DNA of 20,529 bases from contig JALAGF010000485.1 in assembly GCA_030167865.1 (NCBI GenBank), positions 62,001-82,529 of the forward strand, written 5' to 3'. Shown here piece by piece: positions 442 through 20,529 of the stretch (the first letter of the stretch is position 1; the number at the start of each line of letters is the position of its first letter). The notes below the pieces were generated by a model, which saw only the letters and a program-made list of their open reading frames with translations, searched no databases and was not told where the DNA came from. The stretch comes from Craspedostauros australis. Lineage: Eukaryota. The translations under genes and the position numbers were made by a program.

Positions 442-1291
442 TTGGCGACCTCTCCCAGATTGGCTGGGATGTATTGAACCTCGGCGGTCTACTCGAAACG
501 CTGTTTGTGACGTCTGCCAACAAGCCCAGAACTTCTGGGTGCGTGAGGTATCTTCGGCGAACTGTTTGATCGGAGGTGGAATCGTGACAATGATACTTCT
601 GCGAAGTGTGCCGGAAGCAATGCAGCGCAGGGCCTTCACCGTTCAAATGAAGCGGTTACATAATTAGCGGTTGGAAGACGTTGTTTGGACTTATTCAAAT
701 GGAAGAAAGCGGTTACGCCAGCATGTGTGTGTCATTTGTGTGTCACGCAGGCGGTTCATTGGTGGTCTCTTCTGCGTTGTGGATGACGTCTCGGCAACCA
801 AGGGAGGAAGGGACCAGCAGCAGTGGAGGCACCTCACCACAGCGATGTGACAAAGAGAGAGTGTCTGCGCAATAACGCAGTACAAGTTGCTCGTGGAGTA
901 TCACGTGCGGCGCAGAACAGCACAGCGCAAGACTGGAAGCAAGCTCATCCACAAAAGCGCAATTCAAATCAGGTTGCTGTCCTCTCTCTCTTCTAGCAGA
1001 GCATAGTCAGCAGTGTAATCATTGTATTACCGACATCATCGACACCATAGACACCACCATCACCATCAACATCACACTCTACCATACTCACAGTCGTCAC
1101 AACCGCGATACCACCAGGTGTTGTTGTTGTTGTCCGCAGCCCCCGGCTCCAGTCTCCTTTGCGAATTGACGTTGACACAGTTTCGAGAGGACCAACCAAG
1201 AAACGGCACAAGCAAGAAAGCCAGTCAAATAAATCCCACAGCGCTGCTTCCCAGAAGCTGAAAGACACTTGCTTGCGGACACCCCACAACA

Positions 1292-1326
1292 ATCGACTAT
1301 CGACTATCGACTATAGACTATCGACC
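1292..1326 (+). repeat. Heptamer tandem repeat (ATCGACT)x5, imperfect, just upstream of the phosphatase ATG
   Basis: atcgact atcgact atcgact atagact atcgacc read directly. Confidence 0.85.
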
Positions 1327-1344
1327 ATCAACAAGAAACAAGCC

Positions 1345-2917
1345 ATGGGAAAAGCAAGCGGAGCAACGCCGCAGCGCGCCACGAACAACTATGCAGCACC
1401 GCACACCCCGATCGCATCGGCCAAGCGGCCACGATCCAGCATGGACAGGTCCATGCTGAGCCCAAGCGGCCACAAGAGCGGTCTGCCAGCCACTCCCCTC
1501 GTCAAGGGCGATCCCAACACCCCGGTGCCCAACGAAGGCGCGGGATCGCTCAAGACCCCACCGTCCGGCAGACCCCCGCTGGCCTCCGCGGATGCGTCCG
1601 ATCAGCCAATGTCGCCCATGCACCCCGCGCGCCCCATGAGCGTCCACGACCTCAAGATCAAGGAGAAGCTCTCCGTGCATCTCGAGGCCGACGAGGAGGC
1701 CGATGAGGCCGCCGCCATCGAGAGGCAGAACGACGCGCTCTTCAGTCCCGTCCTGCACCTGGACAAGGACGACGAGAAGCTCGATGGCGACGACGCAGCC
1801 ACTTCGGTCACCGACGAGGACGTGGCCAAGGCACAGCCATCCGACGGCTCCAACAACGACTACGAAGGGGAGGAGAGGCTGCAGGCCAACCGGGATCATC
1901 AGGGTGGTCACGATGGCGCGGGAGTCGCTGCCGATGACCACGACCATCAGCCGGAGGAGGAGGAGGAGGAGGAAGCCTCCCACCACGAGGAGACCGATGA
2001 AGAGGACGAGTTCAACCCATACCACTTCATCAAGTACCTCCCCAGCTACGAGCTCGTGGAGCCGTTGCGACCACCCATCAGCCTCCCGCCCAAGGACAAG
2101 GACAGTCCGCCAATCAGCCTCGTCCTCGATCTGGACGAAACTCTCGTGCACTGCACGGTGGAGCCGGTCGATGATGCCGACCTAGTCTTCCCCGTCGTCT
2201 TTCACGGCATGACCTACCAGGTCCACGTGCGCTTGCGTCCACACCTCTTCACCTTCCTCGAAAAGATCAAGGGCAAGTTCGAGGTCATCGTCTTCACCGC
2301 CTCGCAGAAGGTCTACGCCAACGAGTTGCTCAACTTGATTGATCCAGGTCAGTTCCATGCGTTCTTGTTCTATGCAGTTCCATCTCTCTCTCTCTTTCTT
2401 CCTTCATCTGTGTGTTGTGCGAGGAGTCGGCACAGAACCTTTTCACTCACCACCATCGCAATTCTCGTCCCACACACAATTCTGTTCGGAAACCATTTCA
2501 TTCCTTTCCTTTCTGGAATTCATTCTCGTTTGGGATGTTTCTGGTGCGCTTCTTCCAAACACAACAACAACGACAACGACAACCACCACCACAACCACAA
2601 CAACGATAATCACAGACGGCAAATACATACAGCACAGACTCTTCCGCGAGTCCTGCCTCGCCGTGGAGGGCAACTTCCTCAAGGACCTTACCGTCCTCGG
2701 TCGGGACCTGCGAAAGGCCGTGCTCGTCGACAACTCCCCGCACGCCTTCGGGTACCAGGTGGACAACGGCATCCCCATCGAATCATGGTTCGATGAGCCC
2801 ACCGACACCGAGCTCCTCAAGCTCGAGAGATTCCTGCGAAGTCTGCACGGTGCCCCAGACGTCCGCAAGTTGGTCAGGAAAAAGTTCCAGACGCATCGCC
2901 TGGTTCAGGAATCCTAA
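1345..2917 (+). CDS. CTD small phosphatase-like protein (FCP1/SCP family HAD phosphatase, CTDSPL2/SCP4-like); exons 1345-2347 and 2616-2917, ~434 aa
   Basis: Catalytic LVLDLDETLVH motif, VRLRPHL, FEVIVFTASQKVYAN, and after splicing HRLFRESC...KDLTVLGRDL...VLVDNSPHAFGYQVDNGIPIESWF...D.ELLKL. Intron GTCAGT(2348)...CACAG(2615) joins the frames as IDP-D-GKY. The ATG at 1345 follows a CAA-rich leader. The N-terminus is acidic and Ser/Pro-rich. Confidence 0.93.
2348..2615 (+). other. Spliceosomal intron (268 nt) in the CTD phosphatase gene
   Basis: GT...AG ends; removal restores a continuous SCP phosphatase domain across a frame change. Confidence 0.9.
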
Positions 2918-4734: not shown

Positions 4735-5598
4735 TTATGAGTTGACGTTCATCTGTTTGCGACGGAAGCTGCTGGTGGTCTTGCCCCACCAGGACTTGGC
4801 CTTGATGTTGCCCTCCTCCTTGCGGAGGTGCTTGAGGTTGCTGGCGGCGCCGCGCGTGGCTGGGTGATCCTGCCCCAGCGTGGCCTCGAACATGGAGAGG
4901 GCTTTTCGGTAGAGCTCTTCGGAGTTGTTGAGGTCGTTCTGCTCGCGGTAGAGGCAGGCCAGCTTGCACATGATGTCGGCGCAGTCCATGTTGCTGATGC
5001 CGCCAAAGACCTTGTCCTCCATGGAGAGCGCTTCGCGGTAGACCTTGATGGCGGCGGGCAGTTTCCTTCGGTTGCACAGCTGGTCTCCCTCCTGCTCGTA
5101 CTGCAGCCACTGGTCGATGATCTCCATGTAGGATTGGTTGGAGAAGTCTACCTTGATGGATCCGTTGCTGATGCTCATGCTGCTGCGTGAGTTTGGCTTG
5201 CTGCCGGGCGTTTCGTCGAAGGAGCTGTGGGAGCTGTTGGTGCCCACGTCATCCATCCTGGGGACGCCCTCGAGGCAGCCGGCGACATCTTCCCTGAGCG
5301 TCTTCGTCGCGGTGTGATCCTTTCCGTAGCTGAGCTCGCACGTCCGGATGGCGCGCTTGAAGGCCACGAGGGCTGCTGGGACGTTGTCCTTGAGATGGAT
5401 CTTCGATCGGCCGATTCTCCAGTACGTCTTGATGGTGACCTTGTGGTACTTGCCCAGCACGGTCTCATTGGTCTTGAGCGCCTCTTCCAGCAGAGCCACG
5501 GCCCCTTCGAAGTTCTCCTGCTCATGCAGGGCCTTGGCCTGCTCGTACTTCTGTGATGCCTCCTCCAGGAGCTGCGTTGTTTTGTTCCGTGCGACCAT
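4735..5598 (-). CDS. Tetratricopeptide-repeat protein (kinesin light chain-like TPRs), ~287 aa
   Basis: Repeats EEALKTNETVLGKYHKVTIKTYWRIG, AIRTCELSYGKDHTAT, ALSMEDKVFGG...CADIMCKLACLYREQ and KALSMFEATLGQDHPATRGAASNL. Strong C/G third-position bias. First in-frame ATG at 5598; the ORF-track start at 5877 is GTG. Confidence 0.85.
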   Translation of the reverse strand: MVARNKTTQLLEEASQKYEQAKALHEQENFEGAVALLEEALKTNETVLGKYHKVTIKTYWRIGRSKIHLKDNVPAALVAFKRAIRTCELSYGKDHTATKTLREDVAGCLEGVPRMDDVGTNSSHSSFDETPGSKPNSRSSMSISNGSIKVDFSNQSYMEIIDQWLQYEQEGDQLCNRRKLPAAIKVYREALSMEDKVFGGISNMDCADIMCKLACLYREQNDLNNSEELYRKALSMFEATLGQDHPATRGAASNLKHLRKEEGNIKAKSWWGKTTSSFRRKQMNVNS

Positions 5599-8500
5599 CT
5601 TGTTATTATTCTTGTGCTTGTTCTTCTGCTTGTGGTCGCTGTTGTTGTCAGAGTCGCTGTTGTTGTTAGAGTCGTTGTCAGACTCTGTTGGTGCAGGAAT
5701 GGCTGTCTCGATGGCGTCTTCCACTGCGTCGATAATGATGACGGATTGGTTCACCGCGGCGTCGGTCTCACGCTCTGCTTCGTTGTGGTGGTTGGGTTGC
5801 GTGATTGTTGCGGTTTGCTTGTCGCTATTTGTTGGGTCTGCTTGATTGTTTGATTGCTTGATTGTGGGTGGAGGCACAATATCTGGGTTGGTGGTGGAGG
5901 AGCGTGGCTGTTCCCGTTGACTTCCGTGTGACGATATGTGACGACTCGTGCTGTGATTGTTGTGATTGTTGTCTTGTGTGATTGCAGTTGCTGGTGTTGT
6001 GGGTTGATGCGATTACAACTGAGGCCTGCGGATGGCGGTGGTGGCGAGAAACGAGTTGGTCGTGCTGAGAAGCTTCGCGGTTGCTTGTGCTGTGCTGTTG
6101 TGCGGTTGGGTCGTTGTTCCTGTTTGGGTGACCGGTGTGTGGCTTCTTGAGCAGGGTCGCGATCGTGTCAGGTGTTGCTGTCGTTGCCTGGTTGTGGAAG
6201 CGTCTGTGTGTGCGACCTCTGAGTGTCGTTGATTGTTGTTGGTTGTCGTTGATTGTCTGAGCCGTTCTCAAGATGCCGGCCGTTCCGAAGCCAACCAAGA
6301 ATGCTGAAGTGAAAGTGAACGTGGATGTGGATGTGAACAACGTGGAGTTGGTTGAAGCTTTGCTTTTGGGATTCAACTGTTGGGACCTCTTTCAAACCTT
6401 TCTCGAACTGAGATTGTGAAGGAGGTGGGAAGGTGGTTGTTAGTGCTTTGCGGCTCTTGTTGGTTGTCTCTTGTGTGGTTCTTGCCGTGTGGTTGTGTTT
6501 TCTGTCTTCTGTTTTCTGTGTGTGTGTCGGTGTGTGCGTGTTTGCGTTCCTTTGTTGGTGTGCGAACTACTCCTGCTCTCTGCTCAACGGGCTTTTGTGC
6601 ATGTTGGTCCTGCTTTTCTTCGGCCCCTCTTCTCTCCCTCTCTCAATTTCTCCTCCGCTTATCTCCGCTTACCTCGTTCGAACTGCGCGTGCTTGCAGTC
6701 CACGCCACCGCCCACCGTCTTGTTTCCTCTTTCTCCTTCGTCCCGTTCTTGCCACTCCGCTCACAGTCGTCCGCTCGCTGTCACGAAGCTGCGCGCATGT
6801 GTGCGCAATGATGCTGAGGAAAACGCCGCACAAAACGGACCGGGGTTTTCCAGCCCTCGCGATGTCGTCGTGACTCGTGTTCATGCTCCCCCAATCAAAA
6901 CATCGCGGGACCGCAACAACGACGACCTCGACAAGAACAACGTCGGAAAATTCCGTCAAATTCGTTGCCCAACACGACCCATCTTTGGCCGCAAGGAGTC
7001 ACTTGCTGACGTCAGTACTCTCAACCACCACACGAGGAGACACGAACGCAACGCAACCAAGACCAACTCGATTCTCACGCATCACTCCCGTTCAAATAGC
7101 GCTTCGCAGGATGTGCACGGAACTTTGTTCATCCCGACACGACAGCGACACTCTAGGACGACTCCAGGACATTCACTTCCCAATTATTTATCCTTATTTC
7201 CAAAATCGAGAGACAAGGCCATTTAAGGCTGGCGTGATCTTGTCTTGCCCGAAGGGACGAAAACGCCTCGGGTGTCATTCAGTCGCGGAATAAAAGTCGC
7301 AGCGACATGGCTACAGGCATCAGCGAGGTCTATTTTCGCGCTTCCGGCAACCCAAAAGCTCCCGCTTCTGTTCCTTGGCAGGAGTTTCGATCCGATTCGA
7401 TCCGATTCTCACAATTATCTGCCGTGTTTGTGTCGCCGGAGAAGAAACCAGCATTGCCCAAGTAATCGTGGTCTGTCAACGCTCTGTTTGCACGTACAAA
7501 TACACTCCTTTTGCCACCTCTCCTTCTTTCCTCAAATTGCCACACCATCTTGCCTATCCTCCGCATCGCTTGGCGCATCGGCATTCGGCATTGCCTCCAT
7601 CGGTGAGCCGTTCTTCTCCATCTCCCTTGTGCGGACGATACGACAAAGTATAGTACTCTACTCTACTTTACGTGCAGCAGCTATCCTTCTCCTTCCTCTT
7701 TGTTCAACATTCGTCCGTCGCTTCCTTCTCTATCGTGTGTAGACAGTACCAGAACCACATGCTTCACCCTCACATACTCGACACCTGCTCTCAGTTCGTT
7801 GGATCACTTAGATGAGAAGAATGGAGCGAGAGACGTTCTGACTACGCGTGAACAGTGCTGGAACTTTGGAGGATCCTCCAACTTACTCTGCAATCATGCG
7901 TCATGCGTCTCGGCTTCACCCATCAACAGAGGAAGAACTTATTCTTCGTCGGCTGCTTCGGAACAATTGCCAAGAGGTGCCGGCAACTATGGACGAACAC
8001 ATCCCCATCCGGACACGGAAAGGGATGCAACTCTTGGTACGATTGATCGTCCTCGAACCAATCTCTTCCATTGGGAGGTGGCGTGCGTCGACACGTACTC
8101 TACGATGCTCCCAATGTCGCAAGGATCAGGCCAGGCAACATCGAAGATGGCAGCAATCACATGGATGATGGCAATGATGATCAACAGCCAATCGTATAAT
8201 ACTACTCTACGATAGTATGGTGTCATGGTTATTGATAGCTCTCGCAGGGAAACGAATGCGTGTCAATCAATGTGTCACGTATACGTCCAGATCTTCGGCA
8301 ACAAGATGAGTGACACGCCACGGAGTATCACCTTCCCATTCGATCCGACTACTCATGCATTCTCTTCTTGCCCTGTCGAGCAGTCTCTGTCGACGAATAC
8401 AGTACCTACTCTATTCTTCAGTATGGTGAAGCCTTGCAATTTGGCAGCGCCGCCTGATTGGCATCAAATTGCTTCCAACACGTTCAAAAACCAAATCAGT

Positions 8501-8744: not shown

Positions 8745-9368
8745 TCACATTATCGCCGACGAAGACAGTAGAAGGGTAACGACGCCGACCAACGACCAAA
8801 CCACGACGAGCGCAATTCCGGACGCGCTGCCGCACAACTGGACGCCGGCGCATTGGCAAGCCACGCGCTGCTGCGTATCGATCTGCGCCGCGATTGGATT
8901 GTCGCCCCAGGCTTGGCAAAAGGATTGGCATTTGCCGACGCTCGTGATGTTCAAGTCCGCGCAATCATCCACTGCTCCCTCGTACGTGAAGACGGTCTCT
9001 TGATCAACGCACCGGAAGAAGTCCGGCACGTGGGTGCAGTTGCAGCTGGTGAAGCGGTAGATGTTGGGATCGTCCGACGTCGGTCCGATGGCGTAGTCCA
9101 CCCATTGCATTCGATCTTCCTTTTCGCAGATCCTGAGGCAGTCGGCTTTGGTGGTGTCCTTGTTGACGCCATTCGTCTTGCAGGGCTTTGCGGGGAATTC
9201 AGTTCCGCCCTGGGCTCGTGCGAAGAAACTGGCAGATGATAGTGGCGATGACGATGACGATGGCTGCAGCAGAAGCGTGGATTGAGTTGTCCACAGCAGG
9301 AACAAGACTGCGAATGAGCGCTTCATGGAGAGGAACATTGTCTCGGATCGTCTTGCGTCAGACATCAT
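8745..9368 (-). CDS. Small secreted Cys-rich surface protein, probably GPI-anchored or C-terminally membrane-anchored, 207 aa
   Basis: N-terminal hydrophobic stretch (KRSFAVLFLLW), 12 Cys in two C...CxxxC...CxC...C modules, N-glycosylation sequons NCT and NIT, then GSASG followed by a terminal hydrophobic tail with no cytosolic charged residues. Start Met (M1/M2/M11/M15) is uncertain. Confidence 0.75.
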   Translation of the reverse strand: MMSDARRSETMFLSMKRSFAVLFLLWTTQSTLLLQPSSSSSPLSSASFFARAQGGTEFPAKPCKTNGVNKDTTKADCLRICEKEDRMQWVDYAIGPTSDDPNIYRFTSCNCTHVPDFFRCVDQETVFTYEGAVDDCADLNITSVGKCQSFCQAWGDNPIAAQIDTQQRVACQCAGVQLCGSASGIALVVVWSLVGVVTLLLSSSAIM

Positions 9369-10254: not shown

Positions 10255-12176
10255 ATGAAGTTCACAGCATCTATCGTCGCCCTTGTGGGAGCCGCCGCCT
10301 CCGCCGGTGCCTTCAGCCCATCGGCCCCTTCCGTTCACAGCAGCACCAACGCCGCCACATCTACCCAGCTGTACTCCGGCGTCGAGCGCAACGAGAACTT
10401 CGCCAAGCTCGCTGGAGGATACCTGTTCCCAGAGATCGGCCGCAGACGCAATGCCTACCTCGAGGCCAACCCGGACATGGCCGACCGCATCATCTCCCTC
10501 GGAATCGGTGACACCACCCAGCCAATCCCGGACCACATCCTCGAAGGTCTCGTCGGCGGCGCCCAGAAGCTCGGAACCAAGGACGGTTACTCCGGTTACG
10601 GCGCCGAGCAGGGATTCGGAGATCTGCGCCAGAAGATCGCCACCAAGCTCTACAACGACCTCATCAGCGCCGACGAGGTCTTCGTCAGCGACGGTGCCAA
10701 GTGCGATATCATGCGCGTGCAGCAGATGTTCGGTTCCAAGGTCGTCAGCGCCGTGCAGGATCCATCCTACCCGGTCTACGTCGACACCTCCGTCATGATG
10801 GGACAGACCGGAACCCAGGACGAGTCCACCATGCAGTACGACAACATCGTCTACATGCCATGCACGCCAGACAACGGCTTCTTCCCAGATTACGAGAATC
10901 TGCCACGTGCCGACGTCGTCTACATTTGCAGTCCGAAGTAAGTTTGCTTGCTGGCTGGTTGGTTGGTTGATACGTTGGTTGTTGCTGTTGCCGTTGCTGC
11001 TGTTGTTGCTGTTGCTTGTGTGGATGATATTATATATTGCAACTGAATAGCGAAGAATCGGACTTGCGACGAATTGGGCATAGAGAATGAATGGCATTTG
11101 CCAACTATCTCCAACGAGGAAAGCTTCAACGAAGGATGGAACCCAATTGTGGTGCCTCTCTTGCAAATTATGTGACTTTCGTTGTATTCCATCTCGTCGC
11201 GTCGAAGTCCATGTTTCCGGCAGGCAGTGACAACAAAGCAACCAAACGAAACAACAACGTTCGGCATGTGTACCAGAAGAATCAAATGACATCCTTTGCG
11301 ACGCTGTTGCATCGTACCATTTCTCATCAAATCATCTGCGCATGTGCTTTGCTCCTTCGGCTGTGGACAACTCGACCAAAAACTGGTGCGACGACATGGA
11401 AATGAAACGACACGGAATGCTCAATCTCATCATCACCTGGATCCGAATTCCACTTCAAATTCACGACAATGCTCCACTCGGCTGCACCTTCACAAACCTG
11501 CAGCAACCCAACTGGTGCCGCCGCCACCAAGGAACAATTGGAGAACATCGTCAAGGTCTGCAAGGAACGCGGTTCCATCCTCGTCTTCGACGCCGCCTAC
11601 GCTCCATTCATCCGCTCTGAGGGTGTGCCAAAGTCCATCTACGAGATCGAGGGTGCCGAGGACGTCGCAATCGAGGTCAACAGCTTCTCCAAGTACGCCG
11701 GATTCACCGGAGTGCGCCTCGGATGGACCGTCATCCCAAGCGCCCTCAAGTTCAAGGACGGAACCCCAGTCAAGCAGGACTTCAACCGCGTCATGACCAC
11801 CGCCTTCAACGGCGCCTCCAACATCGTGCAGGCAGGTGGCCTCGCATGCCTCGACGACGAGGGCCTTGCCGAGATCAACATCCTCATCGACTACTACCTC
11901 GAGAATGCCAACATCCTCCGCGAGACCATGGAGGAACTTGGCTTCGTCGTCCACGGTGGTACTGACGCTCCTTACATCTTCGTCGAGCTCCCAGAGAGCA
12001 TGGGTGGATCATGGGATGCCTTCTCCTCAATCCTCGAGCAGACACAGGTCGTCACCATCCCAGGTGCCGGATTCGGACCAGGCGGGGAGGGATTCCTGCG
12101 TCTCAGTGCCTTCGCTCCACGTGATTCTGTCCTCGAGGCATGCAAGCGCTTCAAGGAAACTCTCAAGTCCGAGTAA
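10255..12176 (+). CDS. dapL: LL-diaminopimelate aminotransferase (lysine biosynthesis), plastid-targeted; exons 10255-10937 and 11504-12176, ~451 aa
   Basis: GYLFPEI, IISLGIGDTTQP, GYSGYGAEQG, EVFVSDGAKCD, DPSYPVYVDTSV, CSPNNPTG (spanning the intron), FDAAY, PLP-lysine motif SFSKYAGFTGVRLGW, FNGASNIVQAGG, PGAGFGPGGEGFLRLSAF. N-terminal signal peptide MKFTASIVALVGAAASAGA followed by FSP (ASAFAP-type). Confidence 0.97.
10938..11503 (+). other. Spliceosomal intron (566 nt) in dapL
   Basis: GTAAGT donor at 10938 and CTGCAG acceptor ending at 11503; the AA|C junction restores the conserved NNPTG. Confidence 0.93.
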
Positions 12177-12313: not shown

Positions 12314-14973
12314 CTACTCGTGGCGCGGAGCTCCTTCGACGTGCGCCTTATCGCTGGCATCTTGGCTTGGATGCGCACGACTGCCATCACCATCGACGTT
12401 TGTCCCACTCTCCTCACCAGCATGTGTCGCACCAACATCATTCATCGTGGTTGCGCTTGTGTCGGCATCGGCTGAGACATCGTGCGGGTTGTTTGATGCG
12501 AGTTGTTCATCTTGTCTTCCATTCGGTGGCATGATGCGTCTCTTAAATGTGTCTATGCTTTGGGATGCTCCCACAGCATTGGCCACGACTGCAGGAATGA
12601 CTTCCTCTGCATCCTGGCCTGGAGCAACGGCATTCTTCTCTTCCACTCGTCCCTTGTTTCCATTTGTAAATGGGGGGACTTGCGCTCGCAATTGCGCTCG
12701 CGCACCTTCACTATTGTCTTCATCTTCACGTGCGTTTGGGTTTGATTGGCTTCGTTGTGTCGTCTCTCCATTTCCCCTCGAATTTCCTTCGTTGCTCGCG
12801 CCCTTGTCTTCGTCGATGATCTCACTCGCGATATTTCCTTCATCATCAGGATTGTCTTTGGTAGTGTGCACCGTTTGCGACGAATCGATGGTTCGATCGA
12901 GGGAAGGCTGAGTGTCATTCTCCGCCCTGTTCATCCTGCCGTCCTTTCCGCCGTCAGCATCGTGAACGTCATCGTTGCTGCCATACTCATTTTCACGATC
13001 ATCACCATTTTTTCCATCGGCATTCACAGCTTGATCCTGTTGATCGGTTGATGATTCCACCTTCGCACTCTGACGAGGTCCATTCGCAGCATCGTCTTCT
13101 GATGACAATGGTTTGGAGTCCTGTGCATCCGCCTCGAGGACTTCCGAAGCACTTTCCGCAATTGGCTCCGCCTGCTCCTCAAGAAGCGCCAGCAGTCGAT
13201 TCTTTGCGCGCTCCGCCTGAAACATTGGAGCGCAGGGCTGATCCTGTTGCAACTCAGATTTCGGCGAGGCAACCAGCGCTGGTCCTTGTTGCTGGAACAG
13301 ATGGACGGTGCGTCTCGTCGTCATCAGCAACGAGACGGGTCCGTGCGCCGATGCGATGTGCCTCAACCCGTGGACGGAGTACGGCAGACTGCACTGCCAC
13401 ACACGATGGTACGGATCGCGGCGGATCCTTTGGCGCATCCGATGCGATTGCGAGTCATGCTCCGGGCTGCGATACAGAAGCACGCGCCCGCAATGCGTGC
13501 CGATCAAAACGTTGTCACCGTATCCATGCACGCTCAGCACACAGTCCTCCGCATTCACGGCATCGTCCCAGAATCCTTGGGCGATCATGTACGGTCCATC
13601 CCAATTGTCGTCGTTGGGGTCTGAGACATCAAGGCCTGTGCCAGCGTGGCTTCGGTCTTCTTCCTCCACAGAGGACTCATCCGTGTCTGTATTCATCCCA
13701 GCTGCAGCCGCAGCGCCGTGCTCATGGTGGCCAAGGCGGTTGATGTTGTTGTTGTCGTTGCCGCTGATTTTCTCGCCTCCTTCCTCGACGTCAGATGGAG
13801 ACATGCGTCTCATATCTATCGTGCTGATTTCTGGCAGTTCCTTGATGATCCTGCACGCGTATCCACACAGCGAACCAGCGACCACCTGTACGGTTCTGTG
13901 CCAACGATGCCCAATGTCACCGTCGCTGCCTTGGTCGTCATCATTATTCCCGTGCGTTTGAAAAGTCTGCAACGTGACATCCAAGCAGCAGATGGGACCA
14001 TCGACAATGATAGTCTTTGATCGCAGGTTTCGCAGATCGAGTCCATCCTCCCATGTGAAGACTTGAATTGTACCATCTCGGCATGCAACAGCCAGGATGG
14101 TGGAATCATTCGCTCCACTGTGGACTCTTTGTTCTGACGATCCATCCCACAGCCTGCCATGATTGTCAACAGTCTCCGCACCATCACCATAGCCATCGGC
14201 AGCACCATTAGCATAATGGTGCTCGCTGGGACAGACTGGTCGAGTTGATGCCCTTGTGGAATAGGACATGCCAGCCAAAGCAGTAACGGGCGATGCGAAC
14301 GTGAATTCGTCTCGATCGTTGAGGATCTTCCGCAGGATCACACCGGATCGAGGTTCCGCAGTTGTCGCCACGTCTTCGTCATCTGCTTCGATCGTTGTGG
14401 CATCCACCGGAGCGTACAGACGCAATTTGTTGTCATTCGAACTTCCAAGCCACACACAAAATGTCGACGACGAGCCAACATTCGAGTTGCGTTTGCCAAA
14501 GGACATGACGCATTGCGCCAATGGCTTGAAAGTCAACAAGGCAACGTATGTCGTCGCGTCCTGCGTGCTGGTGCCTTCGTCGATCTGCAAAGCTAGCACA
14601 CCCACGATCGTGGATTTCGTCAGACCTGATGAGTCAGGTTGCGCGTCATTTCCATGGTGTTGCAACGTCGTCGCTGAAGTGGCGTGGGCAACACCGAGGG
14701 ATGCAAGCCTCGTTTTTGGCCGCCCTTTATGGATGTCATTCTTGTGCGATTTGATTTCTTGGGGTGCGGCATTGCCTCGCAGTGCGCGTGGTTCGTCTCC
14801 GTCCTGGCTCACTTGGGGCGGTCGGTGTAAGGGGCGATGCTGCGGCTCCAGATCAGCAAGCTCGTCAGACGAGATTGAGTCCAAGTTGACAAACGTCATT
14901 GATTGCGCTTGCATGGTCGTTGACGTTGCCTTCGACTGTGCTGTTTCTCTTTGGCTCTGGTGCAGTACGGACA

Positions 14974-15005
<32 letters not shown>

Positions 15006-15589
15006 CCATCGTGTCTCCGGATCCTGGCAGACGATTGGCCAACGCATATCCATCGAGGACCAAGCTTGGGCATCGGCAGCGTTTTGTGTTTCATTTGCAT
15101 TGCGATGGGTGGCTTCATTGATGTTGGTTGTTCACAGTCGATCAGCGGTGCATGTGCGAGAGCTTCCGTCGCATATCTCTCAGTCTCAGCAGCTTTTGAT
15201 GCAGCTTCTTCCCTTCCGTCATGAGCATCTGAATTCGTCGGAACCTCGTTCGAGGCCTCCTTCGAAGCTTGTGCCATATCGCTGTCGTTGTCATTCTCCT
15301 TCTGATCAGCCAATGCTGAACCGTCGGTGTTGGCTCCGTCCCTTCCAAGTGCATTCGTCAGATGCCTTGATTGTGTATCGTCACCGTCCTGCGGCGCTGG
15401 TGCATCGGCAGCAATGACAGCGACCTCCAACAGATGATTCTCCGTGGAGAGTCTGGTGGTGAACGTGGTGCAGGAATCGTGGACATCGGCATCGCGTCCA
15501 ACGCTGCTGTCTACCACGATTTGCGTGGGGGCCGAAAAGCATGTCGTGGAGGCAGCGAGAGGACATACCGCCGTCTCGACAAACTCCAT
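12314..15589 (-). CDS. Kaptin (KPTN, KICSTOR subunit)-like beta-propeller protein with long low-complexity insertions, 1091 aa
   Basis: Uninterrupted ORF. Conserved-looking blocks in Kaptin-like order: MEFVETAVCPLA, VWLGSSNDNKLRLY, FASPVTAL, ILAVACRDGTIQVF, VDGPICCLDV, VVAGSLCGYA, DCVLSVH...VLIGTHCGRVLLY, VWQCSLPYSVHGL, LLMTTRRTVHLFQ, and a helix AERAKNRLLALL. Acidic disordered segments lie between them. The CDS is confident; the family call is from recalled motifs. Confidence 0.65.
14977..15010. repeat. (CAT/ATG)n trinucleotide microsatellite encoding poly-Asp in the Kaptin-like ORF
   Basis: catcatcatcatcatcatcatcatcatcaccatc, which gives DGDDDDDDDDDG on the minus strand. Confidence 0.85.
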
Positions 15590-16097: not shown

Positions 16098-17378
16098 TTA
16101 ATGAAACAAGCGTCTTTGGATGCCGCACCCAAAGAAGGTCTGCAGGAAATGTTTGGATTTGTCGGCCAGAGGCAAATGGTCGAAGCTCACATCGTTGCAG
16201 CATGCAATGTCCGCAATCGTGCTGCGCATACTCATGAGAACTTCGATTTCATCAGGCGGCAACCGAAATCGGATGGCCCATTCTCGCAGCATGTTTGCGA
16301 TGTGGATGGCAACTTCCGGAGACGGCGATGACGCTGAATCGCCTTGTGGGATTGTCCCATCGGAAGACGGCAAGAAGTTTTGGATGCGATACGGGGTGAA
16401 GTACAGATCCTTCTGCTTCGCCTTGCGTATGGCCTTTGCCATGGAGTAGATGCATTGGATTGCGGCATCGGCGCTTGGCACAAGGAAGACTCTTCTTAGC
16501 TTCATACCGATTGCAAGAGGGAAAAGATCAAGAACGCAACATGCTGAAATAGTGAGGATCATCCCAATCGCAGCGGAGGTATAAAGTCGTGAAACCTGTT
16601 GAATCGAAAGTCCAAGGCGGCTCTCCATGATGATTCAATGCTTGGGTAGCCACGGCATGCCGCGCAGTGTTCTGTCCCTTCTTACCTTTGCCACAAGCTG
16701 CCCACGAGGAGACTGGGTCCATACTGGCTCCGTCGCCATGTGTTGGGCGCGCTGGTAGATAGAGCTGAAGTCAGAGAGCTGGTCTGCTTGATGCCGTCTG
16801 TCTGGTATCACAAATAATGCAGCCGAATATTGGAAGGACTGGAAGAAGTTGGAGAGAACATCCAAGTCGGTGGTTCCTTGCGTCGATCGCGATGTTGATG
16901 ATGTCTCTGCAGACGCACGCACCGAGGATGATTGCGCGCTCTCTTGAATCCTTTGCTTGATACCGTCCAGGTCATGATGGTCATACAACCGAACGGCGAG
17001 GCTAGACTCCGATGGGAAGACGAGATGAGCATCACCAAACAACTGCGAAACGACTTTCACTCGTTTGCAGTGCCCTCGCAGCTCGAATTCCACATCTTGG
17101 ATGCAAGTTTGGGGACGGAACGGCAAAACACGGAGCGTGGAGAAATGAACACAGCAATATCGTGAAAGTGAGCACATGAGAGGCATTGCAAGAAGACACT
17201 GCTTCACCCATGGCATCCCTCAACTCCATGGTCCGCGTCGGCAGCTCAGCTGCATGACGGTCAGCTGGCGAGGCTTTGGCACGAGATAACAGAAAACCAG
17301 GAAGGGTGAAGTCGAAAAAGGGACAGTGCCAAGTTCGTCACCTTTGAACTCTGCGCGTACCGGATGGCCTTTTGTCAT
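16098..17378 (-). CDS. ERCC1-like (inactive ERCC4 domain + HhH) protein, PARTING DANCERS/SPO16(C1orf146)-like; multi-exon. Tentative exons 17378-17342, 17264-17208, 17095-16686, and 16595 (or 16499)-16098
   Basis: Core DVEFELRGHCKRVKVVSQLFGDAHLVFPSESSLAVRLYD...LSNFFQSFQYSAALFVIP...RVFLVPSADAAIQCIYSMAKA. C-terminal HhH-like LPPDEIEVLMSMRSTIADIACCNDVSFDHLPLADKSKHFLQTFF. Clear GTAAG donor at 16685. The 5' exons and the acceptors are inferred from phase compatibility. Confidence 0.55.
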
Positions 17379-18111
17379 TCTTTCTTGCTGCCAAGATCGT
17401 TGTGAATCGCCGTTCTGCCATGTTGCATGTACTCGTACGTGTATTCGTCCATGGGAGTCGATTGTGGTATCATGGTCGCCAATCTCTGTGTTGCTCCTCC
17501 GTGGTGTCGTCCTGTTGTGATGGCGGAGCGTCCCGACATCCAACAGCGAACACAACAAGCACTCGTTGCGACGAGCAACATCAAACGCAGAATTCCTGTC
17601 CCGCCTCGACACATCATGGCGGACGTATCTTTGTTTTCAAAGGAGTCAAGTGAGTCATGATTCCAGTTTCTTCGATGTCTCTCTTGTGACCGGACAAGGC
17701 AAGAACCGAACACGATCAGTCATCTCGCACACCCACAACACTCACGTACCTACCTACGAGCCATGTAGTACCGCCGCCACGCATCAGTTGCCATGGACGA
17801 CACCTTCCACCAGATCCACAACCCTTGATCGTACGTATGTCGCACATGCACAGAAGCGGAGGTCCTGTGATTACGCGCACCAGCAGAGATCACCCCAGAG
17901 AGGCAGAGCAAACCCCCAGAAGAAGCAAACACAAACCCTCGAACGACGACAGCACCACCATCACCACTCGCATCTTCTACAGAATCATCTCTCTGAAGGT
18001 ATCGTAGGATCCCATTCCCGTCCACAAAACAGGCACACACCGAAACAAACATCCGCGAGACCACAAGTCAAGCAACCAAACTTTCCACCAGCCACCACCA
18101 ATACTCGTGCC

Positions 18112-20529
18112 ATGCGTCGCGCTCTCCTCCGTACACCAACAAGGGGAAAGATGAGGATGTCATCAATGGCGTCACTAACAGCCCTCGTGACCCCCGCGAT
18201 GGGATTCATCGTCCCACGCCCATGCTTGCCACCGTCCTCGGCCTCCAGATTCATCTCTTCGATGCCTTTCGCACCAGCCTCATCCTTGCCATTGGTGTCG
18301 ACTTCGCCACTTCAACACCAACCACAACGATGGTGGTCTGGTTCTCGTCTCTTTTCGGACATTACAAACGACGAGAATGTAGCAGCACCCGTGCCAGTCG
18401 ACGCAACAGCGGCGCCATCTGCGATCCCATTCGACATCGACAGCTACAAGGACCTCTTCAGCGACGCCAGCTTCTGGGACATCCAGTTGGAGGACGCAGC
18501 AGTCATGAAACTTCTCGATGAGAGAGTGTTGGGACAAGGACACTCTGCAGGTGAACCGTGGAAACCGTTGGTTGATGCACGAAAGAATATCATTACGTTC
18601 TTCAAAGAACATGGCAATCACGCTGTGCATCGTATGCAAAGCTACGCAGTCGGATGGGACAGAATGACGGATGTAGGCAAGCTTATCAAACAATGGATCG
18701 CGGAAGGAGGTAAAGGCGGCGCAGACCAAGCACAGGATGTCGTTGACAACATCAACGATTGCTTGGACAATGCTGCACCAACTCTCGACGACTTCGTCCA
18801 AAGGAGACTCAGCAGACTGCCATATGGAAAAGTCGAGACGCTATCACATGGCGCAGGCGAGACATTCTTTATTGGTTCCATCGACTCTGGAGACAAAGGA
18901 CTGTCTTTGGAAACTCCGGAAAACGCCATTCTGGACGCGTCGAATTCGCTGAAAAAAGGCAACGCCGTATTGGTCTACTTCTCAGAGAGCGGCAGTGGTA
19001 AGACAGTTGAGCTCGCCGGAAGCGCATTTTTGCGAGGTTGCGTCATCAGCATGATTGACGAAATTCCAAAATGGGCCAACTTACCCAATACGATGCCAGA
19101 CGAGGATCGACTCGAACAGTGCATTGATATACTCAAGGAGCGTTTCGATGACCTCGCAACATCCAATAAAGAAGCCTTCGAGACCATTCTCCAGGCAATC
19201 AACGACTGGGAGGAACCAAACGCCAATCCTACGGAAGATGTGAGGATCGTCTTCTGCATCGATGAAGCGTCTGCATGCCTCAACTTGGTGCAGACGATCA
19301 TCAATGAAAAGGACATTCTTTACAAAACCATGGGGGATCACATCGCAAGTGGATTTGGCGGCGTGCTAGACGAGAAGTTCAAAACGGACCGACCCATCCG
19401 TGTTGTGTTCTCTGTCGCCGGCACAGGGGCGTATGGGGCCACAGTTGGATCCAACCAAGCACACTACAAGTGCCTCAAGCCCAGTGGCAACACAGTCACC
19501 AACGAGCTGTACGATACACTCAAATCCGAGTACGACGAGAGCAGTGTTAGATACGAGAACATTGCGACATTCGAAGATCTGAAGACGCGGCCATTCCTGG
19601 GAATCATCGCCCAGGGCAATGCACGGATGGCTTCCATCTTGATCGATCAAATGTTCCATTCGGGGTTCCTGTACAACAATCCCTATGATGAGATCCGACT
19701 GATGTATTTGGTTTTTGACAAGTTCATCAATTCAAATGCAATGGGATCGCTGTGGAGCGGCCATGAAGGCTCGAACAAAAATGCCGAGCCAGGTGTACCA
19801 CTAGCGGAAGTCCCAAACTCGCAACATTTGCGGGACAAAGATATCATTGCAGCAAAGGACAGGATGGCTGCATCATCGCAAGCCTTTACGGCGCTTCTCT
19901 ATCCAGAGCCCTTCGAACTACCCGCCAATGACACAACAGCACAAGCGAAGGCAAGGGCGCTCAGCTACGGCCCTTCATTCCATAGCTTCTACAACGCGTT
20001 CCGTGGAACCGCTGCACCTGCTCCTGCCGAGGAGGACGATGACAGGCCGACACCTATGCGGCTGCTCGTTCGCAGGTACGGGATCGTGGTACCGGCAGAG
20101 TTTACAGGCAAGTGGACCGAAACGCAAACACTATCACAGCCGTTCATCATGAAGGACGTGATGCGACTACTGTGCATCTGGCTTGCGAGCAGTGGAAAAC
20201 GGTCGAGGGAGGCCAATGCGTTGTTGGGAGTCCATTCGTTTGGGTTCGAGGTGCTGTCAACTCAGCTTGTGAGTAGTGCCATTACAGCAGCCATGACCAT
20301 CGAGGAGAAGAAACGCAAAGACCTGCACCACATCTTGACAAAGAGCCTCAAAATGTTCCTGAGAGGTTACACCAACGATGGCGACGACACAGCCGAACAT
20401 GTTGACAAGGAGATCAAAGAGGCGTGGGAGGCATTCAAAGACGTGATTCCTGTCTCAACCGAATGCGATCTCACCTTGGATGGCATGTACTCTCAGAAAT
20501 CCGCGATGTGGTTGAACAAGCGAGACGAA
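18112..20529 (+). CDS. Crinkler/RHS-type (CR) STAND-like P-loop NTPase protein with N-terminal organellar presequence; 3'-truncated by the window edge (>=806 aa)
   Basis: Hand translation shows no stop from ATG 18112 to 20529. Walker A VLVYFSESGSGKT (18982-19005), Walker B IVFCIDEA (19246-19269), sensor-like VVFSVAGTG (ending 19428), GNARMA (19615-19632), LVRRYG, and SFGFEVL (GFE at 20242-20250). Not in the supplied ORF track because no stop falls in the window. Confidence 0.8.
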   Translation, partial: MRRALLRTPTRGKMRMSSMASLTALVTPAMGFIVPRPCLPPSSASRFISSMPFAPASSLPLVSTSPLQHQPQRWWSGSRLFSDITNDENVAAPVPVDATAAPSAIPFDIDSYKDLFSDASFWDIQLEDAAVMKLLDERVLGQGHSAGEPWKPLVDARKNIITFFKEHGNHAVHRMQSYAVGWDRMTDVGKLIKQWIAEGGKGGADQAQDVVDNINDCLDNAAPTLDDFVQRRLSRLPYGKVETLSHGAGETFFIGSIDSGDKGLSLETPENAILDASNSLKKGNAVLVYFSESGSGKTVELAGSAFLRGCVISMIDEIPKWANLPNTMPDEDRLEQCIDILKERFDDLATSNKEAFETILQAINDWEEPNANPTEDVRIVFCIDEASACLNLVQTIINEKDILYKTMGDHIASGFGGVLDEKFKTDRPIRVVFSVAGTGAYGATVGSNQAHYKCLKPSGNTVTNELYDTLKSEYDESSVRYENIATFEDLKTRPFLGIIAQGNARMASILIDQMFHSGFLYNNPYDEIRLMYLVFDKFINSNAMGSLWSGHEGSNKNAEPGVPLAEVPNSQHLRDKDIIAAKDRMAASSQAFTALLYPEPFELPANDTTAQAKARALSYGPSFHSFYNAFRGTAAPAPAEEDDDRPTPMRLLVRRYGIVVPAEFTGKWTETQTLSQPFIMKDVMRLLCIWLASSGKRSREANALLGVHSFGFEVLSTQLVSSAITAAMTIEEKKRKDLHHILTKSLKMFLRGYTNDGDDTAEHVDKEIKEAWEAFKDVIPVSTECDLTLDGMYSQKSAMWLNKRDE

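Follow-up and report, generated by a model that had tools for sequence, protein, structure and literature searches.

Bipartite plastid signals of the ASAFAP type (signal peptide plus Phe) are the closest described counterparts of the leader considered here. The diatom plastid motif is noted as "FAP or FXXP" (Huesgen et al., 2013); diatom transit peptides are Ser/Thr-rich, nearly free of Asp and Glu, and net positive (Huesgen et al., 2013; Gruber et al., 2015), with a measured length range in T. pseudonana of 12-42 residues; and passage into the plastid, as against retention, is determined in published work by a Phe at +1 together with a tail that is net positive and free of acids. The diatom stromal cleavage rule of Huesgen et al. 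(2013) asks for L at -2, between A or S at -3 and a small or charged amino acid at -1; A, S or M occupies +1, and a net negative charge follows. Dual plastid/mitochondrion targeting from one leader has been demonstrated experimentally for diatom argRS2 and asnRS2 (Gile et al., 2015); its authors suggest that diatom aminoacyl-tRNA synthetases (aaRS) achieve this either through leaders that are ambiguous or by starting at different Mets, such that the signal peptide comes first and the second Met opens a mitochondrial signal. On the cargo side, the C-terminal module of the CR (Crinkler-RHS) effectors is described as a P-loop nucleoside triphosphatase (NTPase) joined to a helix-turn-helix domain and a restriction endonuclease (REase) domain (Amaro et al., 2017, PMC5289972, summarising Zhang et al., 2016). 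The locus described here is at the end of a 20,529-nt stretch of DNA from Craspedostauros australis (Eukaryota; GenBank assembly GCA_030167865.1, contig JALAGF010000485.1, positions 62,001 to 82,529, forward strand), analysed as a whole and referred to below as the window. It encodes a member of an uncharacterised eukaryotic NTPase family whose first 82 residues form a leader-like extension outside the conserved, folded body. This acid-free stretch is probably a real organelle-import leader; whether it acts as a bipartite plastid signal, with or without mitochondrial targeting in addition, is evenly poised. Both import and the identity of the receiving organelle we infer from sequence.

The ATG at 18112, on the forward strand, opens a frame of 806 codons that exits at the window end. 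In-frame Met codons are found at residues 1, 14, 16, 19, 30, and 51 (18112, 18151, 18157, 18166, 18199, and 18262) and then not until M132; upstream of 18112 the frame is open as far as a TGA at 17518 and has no further ATG in phase. The leader would be translated from M1 (or from M14-19). The main features, all on the forward strand, are as follows, with a slash marking a cleavage position here and below.

17849..18111, forward strand: C/A-rich tract free of ATG, probably 5' untranslated region or promoter, abutting the start codon
18112..18114, forward strand: start codon, the first in-frame ATG, in the context gtgccATGc with a purine at -3
18112..18357, forward strand: acid-free leader of 82 residues, recognised by composition, disorder, and lack of a counterpart in the homologue P0005
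18112..18156, forward strand: basic tip, residues 1-15 (MRRALLRTPTRGKMR), with six positive charges and a high helical hydrophobic moment
18151..18168, forward strand: in-frame Mets 14, 16, and 19, earlier proposed as alternative starts, in the contexts ggaaagATGa, atgaggATGt, and tcatcaATGg
18157..18216, forward strand: uncharged stretch, residues 16-35 (MSSMASLTALVTPAMGFIVP), by hydropathy a candidate h/c-region of a signal peptide
18205..18216, forward strand: FXXP motif F32-I-V-P35, following A29-M-G31 (small residues at -3 and -1), scored with ASAFind
18205..18354, forward strand: transit-peptide-like tail, residues 32-81, with 11 Ser, 1 Thr, 10 Pro, 4 Arg, 1 His, and no Asp or Glu
18346..18375, forward strand: candidate processing site R79-L80-F81/S82-D-I-T-N-D-E, read from the sequence
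18358..20529, forward strand: conserved body, with a helical N-domain, a STAND/AAA+-like P-loop NTPase, and helical domains, assigned from homology, predicted confidence, and fold matches
18982..19005, forward strand: Walker A, S291-ESGSGKT-298 (family consensus SxSGSGKT)
19246..19272, forward strand: Walker B, I379-VFCIDEAS-387 (family consensus AIDEAS)

The original prediction, made from the letters alone, had the first 82 residues free of Asp and Glu and rich in Arg, Ser, Pro, and Leu, with Mets at 14, 16, and 19, a G31/F32 junction, and an SRLF/SD end, and in all of this the sequence bears it out. The composition of residues 1-82 is S15 P11 R9 L9 A7 M6 T5 F4, with K+R = 10; the first acidic residue is D83 (codon 18358-18360), and the junctions read ...TALVTPAMG/FIVPRP... 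and ...SGSRLF/SDITNDEN. Asp and Glu make up 14.9% of the body, which gives a chance of (1-0.149)^82 = 1.8e-6 for 82 acid-free residues; the longest acid-free run elsewhere in the body is 38 residues.

This stretch appears as an addition to an otherwise conserved protein. In an AlphaFold2 model built from a 64-row alignment, the per-residue confidence (predicted local distance difference test, pLDDT) is ~28 over residues 1-103 and high from about residue 110 (mean 76; predicted template modelling score 0.73). The nearest homologue with a called N-terminus, P0005, has 34% identity; its Met1 falls opposite residue 80, the alignment begins at residue 97, and it has no counterpart of the 82-residue leader. 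Residues 97-131 are conserved and lie upstream of M132, so that an ATG start must be at or before M51; every candidate start therefore leaves at least 32 acid-free residues. The alignment and the model thus support a leader-like N-terminal extension outside the conserved, folded body, and to this extent the organelle presequence originally proposed is upheld; its plastid and mitochondrial readings each fit in part.

Within the extension, the basic tip has a helical hydrophobic moment of 0.55-0.65 in 11-residue windows starting at residues 1-3 and 5-6, and 0.41 at residue 4; P9 and G12 interrupt a helix there, and AlphaFold predicts none. The best 11-residue Kyte-Doolittle mean in the uncharged stretch is 2.03 (ALVTPAMGFIV), vs. 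2.66 for the homologue P0017 and 2.95 for P0003, and by eye its hydropathy is also below that of the benchmark leader introduced below. The tail, residues 32-81, is 50 residues long, 24% Ser+Thr, and net +4, in agreement with the transit-peptide properties in the parts of the literature cited above, and has little helical amphipathicity. At its end, L80 at -2, S82 at +1, and a net charge of -3 over the next six residues agree with the stromal cleavage rule in the form quoted.

A benchmark for plastid import is available in the same window, in a gene for LL-diaminopimelate aminotransferase (forward strand; exon 10255-10941, an intron of ~0.5 kb, and a second exon at about 11406-12176), which matches TIGR03542 from residue 45 (E 2.4e-62).

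10255..10386, forward strand: bipartite plastid leader of the LL-diaminopimelate aminotransferase, 44 residues, MKFTASIVALVGAAASAGA/FSPSAPSVHSS...

This leader, of textbook form with a signal peptide followed by A/F, shows that the host genome uses ASAFAP-type plastid import. Scores were computed with the ASAFind matrix (Table S2 of Gruber et al., 2015), with a transit-score threshold of 2 over 20 residues and a cleavage motif of 25 residues; the background was 1462 internal Phe sites in proteins of the NTPase family, and ASAFind reference proteins (part of Table S4 plus its 10 mitochondrial rows) were compared by eye. The results were:

Aminotransferase benchmark leader: cleavage 9.06, transit 5.68
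Window protein at G31/F32: cleavage 5.70, transit 4.62
P0017: cleavage 7.08, transit 4.31
P0003: cleavage 7.18, transit 4.24
P0004: cleavage 7.39, transit 4.11

With cleavage placed where the motif suggests, the window protein has Phe at +1 and a transit score above the ASAFind threshold; 3.25 of that score comes from the Phe alone, and 8.8% of internal Phe sites score at least the 1.37 that is left. The weak signal peptide with a plastid-type +1 Phe that had been predicted from the downstream Mets is thus borne out in its Phe and transit score; its cleavage score is weak. P0017's cleavage score is reached by 1.0% of the internal sites and P0003's by 0.9%, and the Phe-type reference proteins in the rows compared score about 8-9. 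For a long n-region before a plastid signal peptide there is a precedent in PtSP1, with a SignalP cleavage position of 42.

An exhaustive profile search yielded 99 relatives of the window protein, 62 of them below 1e-10; word-index protein searches with the whole protein, the 64-row alignment, or residues 100-806 returned only P0002, which is 5'-truncated, and metagenome locus scans with A1 and with P0017 gave no confirmed relative. N-termini were compared for 44 proteins: the window protein itself and those 43 homologues whose sequence begins with Met and whose Walker A is preceded by at least 60 residues. A basic cluster resembling a nuclear localisation signal (NLS) is found in the first 60 residues of 19 of the 44, vs. 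45 of 313 internal 60-residue windows. Long acid-free starts are confined to the window protein (82) and P0017 (77), the next being P0075 (44) and P0082 (28), both also with hydrophobic N-termini. P0017 is 25% identical to the window protein and belongs to a different clade, where its neighbours, P0015 and P0021, have NLS-like N-termini. The layout of the P0017 leader is nevertheless the same, MRSHRNRSFCM...SKLLLYGLLLIISSSTLHA/FIAPQPQLP...: first a basic tip with a Met inside it, next a hydrophobic stretch, then LHA/F; the acid-free tail ends in SRSF, and the first acidic residue is 78. The window and P0017 leaders align with a score of 50 (shuffles 26.7 +/- 4.9), reached by 5 of 2000 shuffles; in alignments with the aminotransferase leader the score was reached by 202 of 2000 shuffles for the window leader and 735 of 2000 for that of P0017.

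A quick tree of 36 rows places the window protein in one clade with P0003, P0004, P0002, whose N-terminus is missing, and P0019, which lacks a leader; the Shimodaira-Hasegawa-like approximate likelihood ratio test support of this clade is 98; P0003 and P0004 have a strong signal peptide followed by A/F. The four leader-bearing rows need at least three changes on this tree, so that leaders have been gained, or lost, more than once in the family. The nearest partial relatives, P0005 and P0008, depart from the family in another respect: Walker A has Arg for Lys (GNGSGRT), and Walker B has D-D for D-E (CLDDA, CIDDA). They may be inactive or regulatory paralogues.

As read here, residues 1-82 would be a cleavable import leader added to one member of the family, arranged as a basic tip (residues 1-15), a moderately hydrophobic uncharged stretch (16-31), G/F-x-x-P, and an acid-free tail ending in L-F/S. 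On the simplest plastid reading the protein would enter the endoplasmic reticulum (ER) co-translationally and be cleaved before F32; the exposed Phe and the net positive charge would then carry it across the inner plastid membranes, with a second cleavage near residue 81. Some or all of the protein may reach the mitochondrion instead or as well, the leader being ambiguous because of its basic tip.

An ambiguous leader is also the simpler form of the dual-targeting idea. Dual targeting had been proposed to come about through alternative ATGs, as is possible, but three points leave that version without support here: the isoforms from M1 to M19 all retain the hydrophobic stretch; the first ATG has a purine at -3 and, as at the aminotransferase start, CC at -2/-1; and the order of the parts is reversed relative to the diatom aaRS, where the mitochondrial prediction is stronger from the second Met, downstream of the signal peptide, while in the window gene the basic, mitochondrial-like portion is upstream.

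Several observations weigh against a plastid signal. The cleavage score of 5.70 is weak, being reached by 7.7% of the 1462 internal Phe sites; the h-region is weak as well, and -1 is occupied by Gly instead of Ala and -2 by Met. At the second site, the stromal rule is broken by R79 at -3 and by F81 at -1, and the tail is longer than the measured transit peptides. The ASAFind reference table lists 10 P. tricornutum proteins whose mitochondrial location is experimental; of these, 7 are SignalP-positive and 3 are low-confidence plastid false positives. Two of these mitochondrial proteins resemble the window leader closely, FolC in its basic start, hydrophobic stretch, and SLHA/F, and GSR2 in an acid-free leader of ~85 residues. 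No close orthologue by which conservation of the leader might be gauged was found in the protein database or the metagenome scans, and the stop-free frame upstream of 18112 leaves room for an extended or spliced 5' end.

One rival reading is a purely mitochondrial presequence, either a matrix signal cut by the mitochondrial processing peptidase (MPP) at R79-L-F/S or a bipartite one for sorting to the inner membrane or intermembrane space. MPP cleavage motifs have Arg at -2 or -3, R-x-F/S being of the R-3 type. Arg sites of this kind occur in the leader at R79-L-F81/S82, which fits the R-3 motif, and also at R15-M/S17 and R46-F-I/S49. The charges and moment of the tip and the 82 residues without acids would likewise be expected of such a presequence, and the leaders of FolC, GSR2, and PGP-2 show that mitochondrial ones can be hydrophobic, SignalP-positive, and acid-free over long stretches, in FolC even with A/F. 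It would not, however, account for the 10 prolines and poor helical amphipathicity of residues 32-81; an FXXP directly after a small-x-small site would be unexpected, as would the likeness to the leader of P0017, with its strongly hydrophobic h-region; and the clade-mates P0003 and P0004 have classic signal peptides. On balance a mitochondrial presequence alone is rather unlikely. A signal peptide or signal anchor without plastid import, leaving the protein secretory, ER-resident, periplastidial, or membrane-anchored, would suit the 20-residue uncharged stretch after a basic n-region and the hydrophobic N-termini of P0003, P0004, P0075, and P0082, but would leave the published plastid-entry determinant, in the form cited above, without a role, and a nucleotide-dependent protein of nuclease type would presumably have no obvious substrate in the secretory lumen; this is the explanation judged most unlikely.

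The remaining alternative is that the 5' end is mis-modelled: there could be an exon further upstream or a start codon other than AUG, transcription could begin within the leader, or the leader could go untranslated. From 17521 to 18111 on the forward strand, 197 codons 5' of the ATG contain no stop in the NTPase frame, while the other two frames have 3 and 5; this was matched in only 19 of 3000 dinucleotide shuffles. Codon usage does not tell the frames apart over the leader, where log-odds trained on the body are 0.00 per codon for the leader frame vs. +0.11 for another. The genome has introns, as in the aminotransferase gene, and the protein database searched holds no gene model for the NTPase protein. 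Run X1, for which no RNA origin is recorded, has contigs over 17300-17504, 19318-19594, and 20021-20529 alone, and these are uninformative on the 5' end. On the other side, the in-frame peptide predicted from 17521-18111 has no Met and no coding signal by codon usage; the 263 nt before 18112 are free of ATG in any frame (the nearest is at 17846), as are 5% of mononucleotide shuffles, and this C/A-rich tract resembles the one 5' of the aminotransferase ATG. The acid-free run of 82 codons has a chance of about 2e-6, and the conserved residues 97-131 require an ATG start no later than M51. A mis-modelled 5' end is accordingly considered very unlikely, and an organelle-import leader, possibly of the bipartite plastid type, is retained as the working interpretation.

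The body to which this leader is attached belongs to a family without a match in Pfam, NCBIfam, PADLOC, or a PDB sequence profile search; the window protein itself has 0 Pfam families at E<=1. The family consensus includes an FRHxG motif, the two Walker motifs, several helical-domain motifs, and, in full-length members, a C-terminal domain. By fold, the window protein is closest in Foldseek to NRC3 (E 5e-4) and NRC4 (E 8e-4), with CED-4 and ORC/Cdc6 below; the homologue P0002 gave VIA-align Z scores of 11.6 (9qlv, TIR-NLR WRR4A), 11.0 (the archaeal ATPase 2qen), and 10.8 (8fvu, NAIP/NLRC4). These whole-model matches are taken up by the NTPase part. In the C-terminal domain of the homologues, numbered as in P0002, D787 is present in 46 of 48 rows, Q815 in 43 of 46, and K817 in 44 of 47, and these D...Q-x-K residues are on adjacent predicted strands (788-798, 803-816). 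They may be a PD-(D/E)xK-like signature; the window gene's own C-terminal domain would lie beyond base 20529. Protein atlas placements are leads only: for the window protein, unnamed eukaryotic clusters and a Crinkler-family cluster (0.89); for the C-terminal domain of P0002, NA37 (0.90, with few common features) and an RHSP-bearing cluster (0.80). The label "CR-like" first given to the protein holds for the order of parts seen in its homologues and goes no further: Pfam finds no Crinkler header or other CR-related family in the window protein, and none, PF20147 included, in 50 homologues, and no profile connects the family to the CR families. The label describes a resemblance of architecture and makes no statement on membership. 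No description of an organelle-targeted CR-like protein was found in the literature, in a search that was not exhaustive.

Import leaders as such are well known; it is the cargo that would be unusual, together with more than one retargeting among the members of an uncharacterised family of NTPase/nuclease-like proteins. If imported, the window protein would be a candidate NTP-regulated nuclease acting on the organellar genomes of an ecologically important algal group, with a bearing on organelle genome maintenance, defence, or inheritance. It could conceivably represent a nuclear, conflict-type STAND-NTPase/nuclease family of complex-plastid algae that has been retargeted at least twice (in the window protein's clade and in P0017) as an NTP-switched nuclease on organellar DNA. 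In so specific a form this is distinctly unlikely; were it true, possible roles would include surveillance against organelle-invading elements, control of copy number or inheritance, and programmed degradation of organelle DNA. The case in any event illustrates the difficulty of distinguishing plastid leaders from mitochondrial ones in complex-plastid algae.

The rest of the window contains several other reading frames. Those at 1159-2796 (forward strand) and 4735-5877 (reverse strand), with an NLI-interacting-factor-like phosphatase domain (PF03031, E 1.5e-20) and TPR_10/TPR_12 repeats (E 3e-21), respectively, are ordinary eukaryotic genes. An open reading frame (ORF) at 8745-9368 (reverse strand) has a hydrophobic signal-like N-terminus (MKRSFAVLFLLWTTQSTLLL...), a Cys-rich middle, and a hydrophobic C-terminus, with no Pfam match; judging by these features, its product looks secreted or membrane-anchored. 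Adjoining the aminotransferase gene is an orphan ORF of 1091 codons (12314-15589, reverse strand; open for 1162 codons), very acidic, with runs of Asp and no Pfam match. At 16101-17636 (reverse strand) are open stretches of 178, 194, and 138 codons in one frame, interrupted by single stops at 16635-16637 and 17220-17222 and again without a Pfam match. The X1 contigs at 17300-17504, over this last region, have a higher depth than the NTPase gene. Gene decay, a non-coding transcript, or chance could account for these stretches.

In comparison with known systems, the leader shares with ASAFAP-type bipartite signals, such as those of the LL-diaminopimelate aminotransferase and P. tricornutum PtSP1, a stretch resembling a signal peptide, an FXXP whose Phe is at +1 after small residues at -3 and -1, a tail that is hydroxylated, net positive, and devoid of acids, and what would be an acidic N-terminus of the mature protein. 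It differs in its weaker h-region, Gly at -1, and cleavage score of 5.70 rather than about 8-9, and in having a highly basic tip of 15 residues and a tail of 50 residues rather than 12-42. With FolC, GSR2, and the dual-targeted aaRS it has in common a basic start, a hydrophobic stretch of the type SignalP accepts, and a long acid-free region, and with FolC a small residue directly before Phe (A/F there).

The body may be set beside two groups of proteins. Like the CR effectors, the family has a P-loop NTPase followed by helical or winged-helix-like domains and then, in full-length homologues, the D...Q-x-K domain; unlike them, it has no ubiquitin-like/LFLAK header, its N-termini being NLS-like or organelle-leader-like. 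Like the STAND and ORC-Cdc6 AAA+ NTPases (NB-ARC/NACHT modules of plant and animal NLRs; archaeal 2qen and 2fna), it combines an NTPase with following helical domains in the same fold and has intact Walker A and B motifs, although sequence identity is only about 10%, with no profile match. It has no LRR, TPR, or WD sensor repeats; a nuclease-like C-terminal domain stands in their place.

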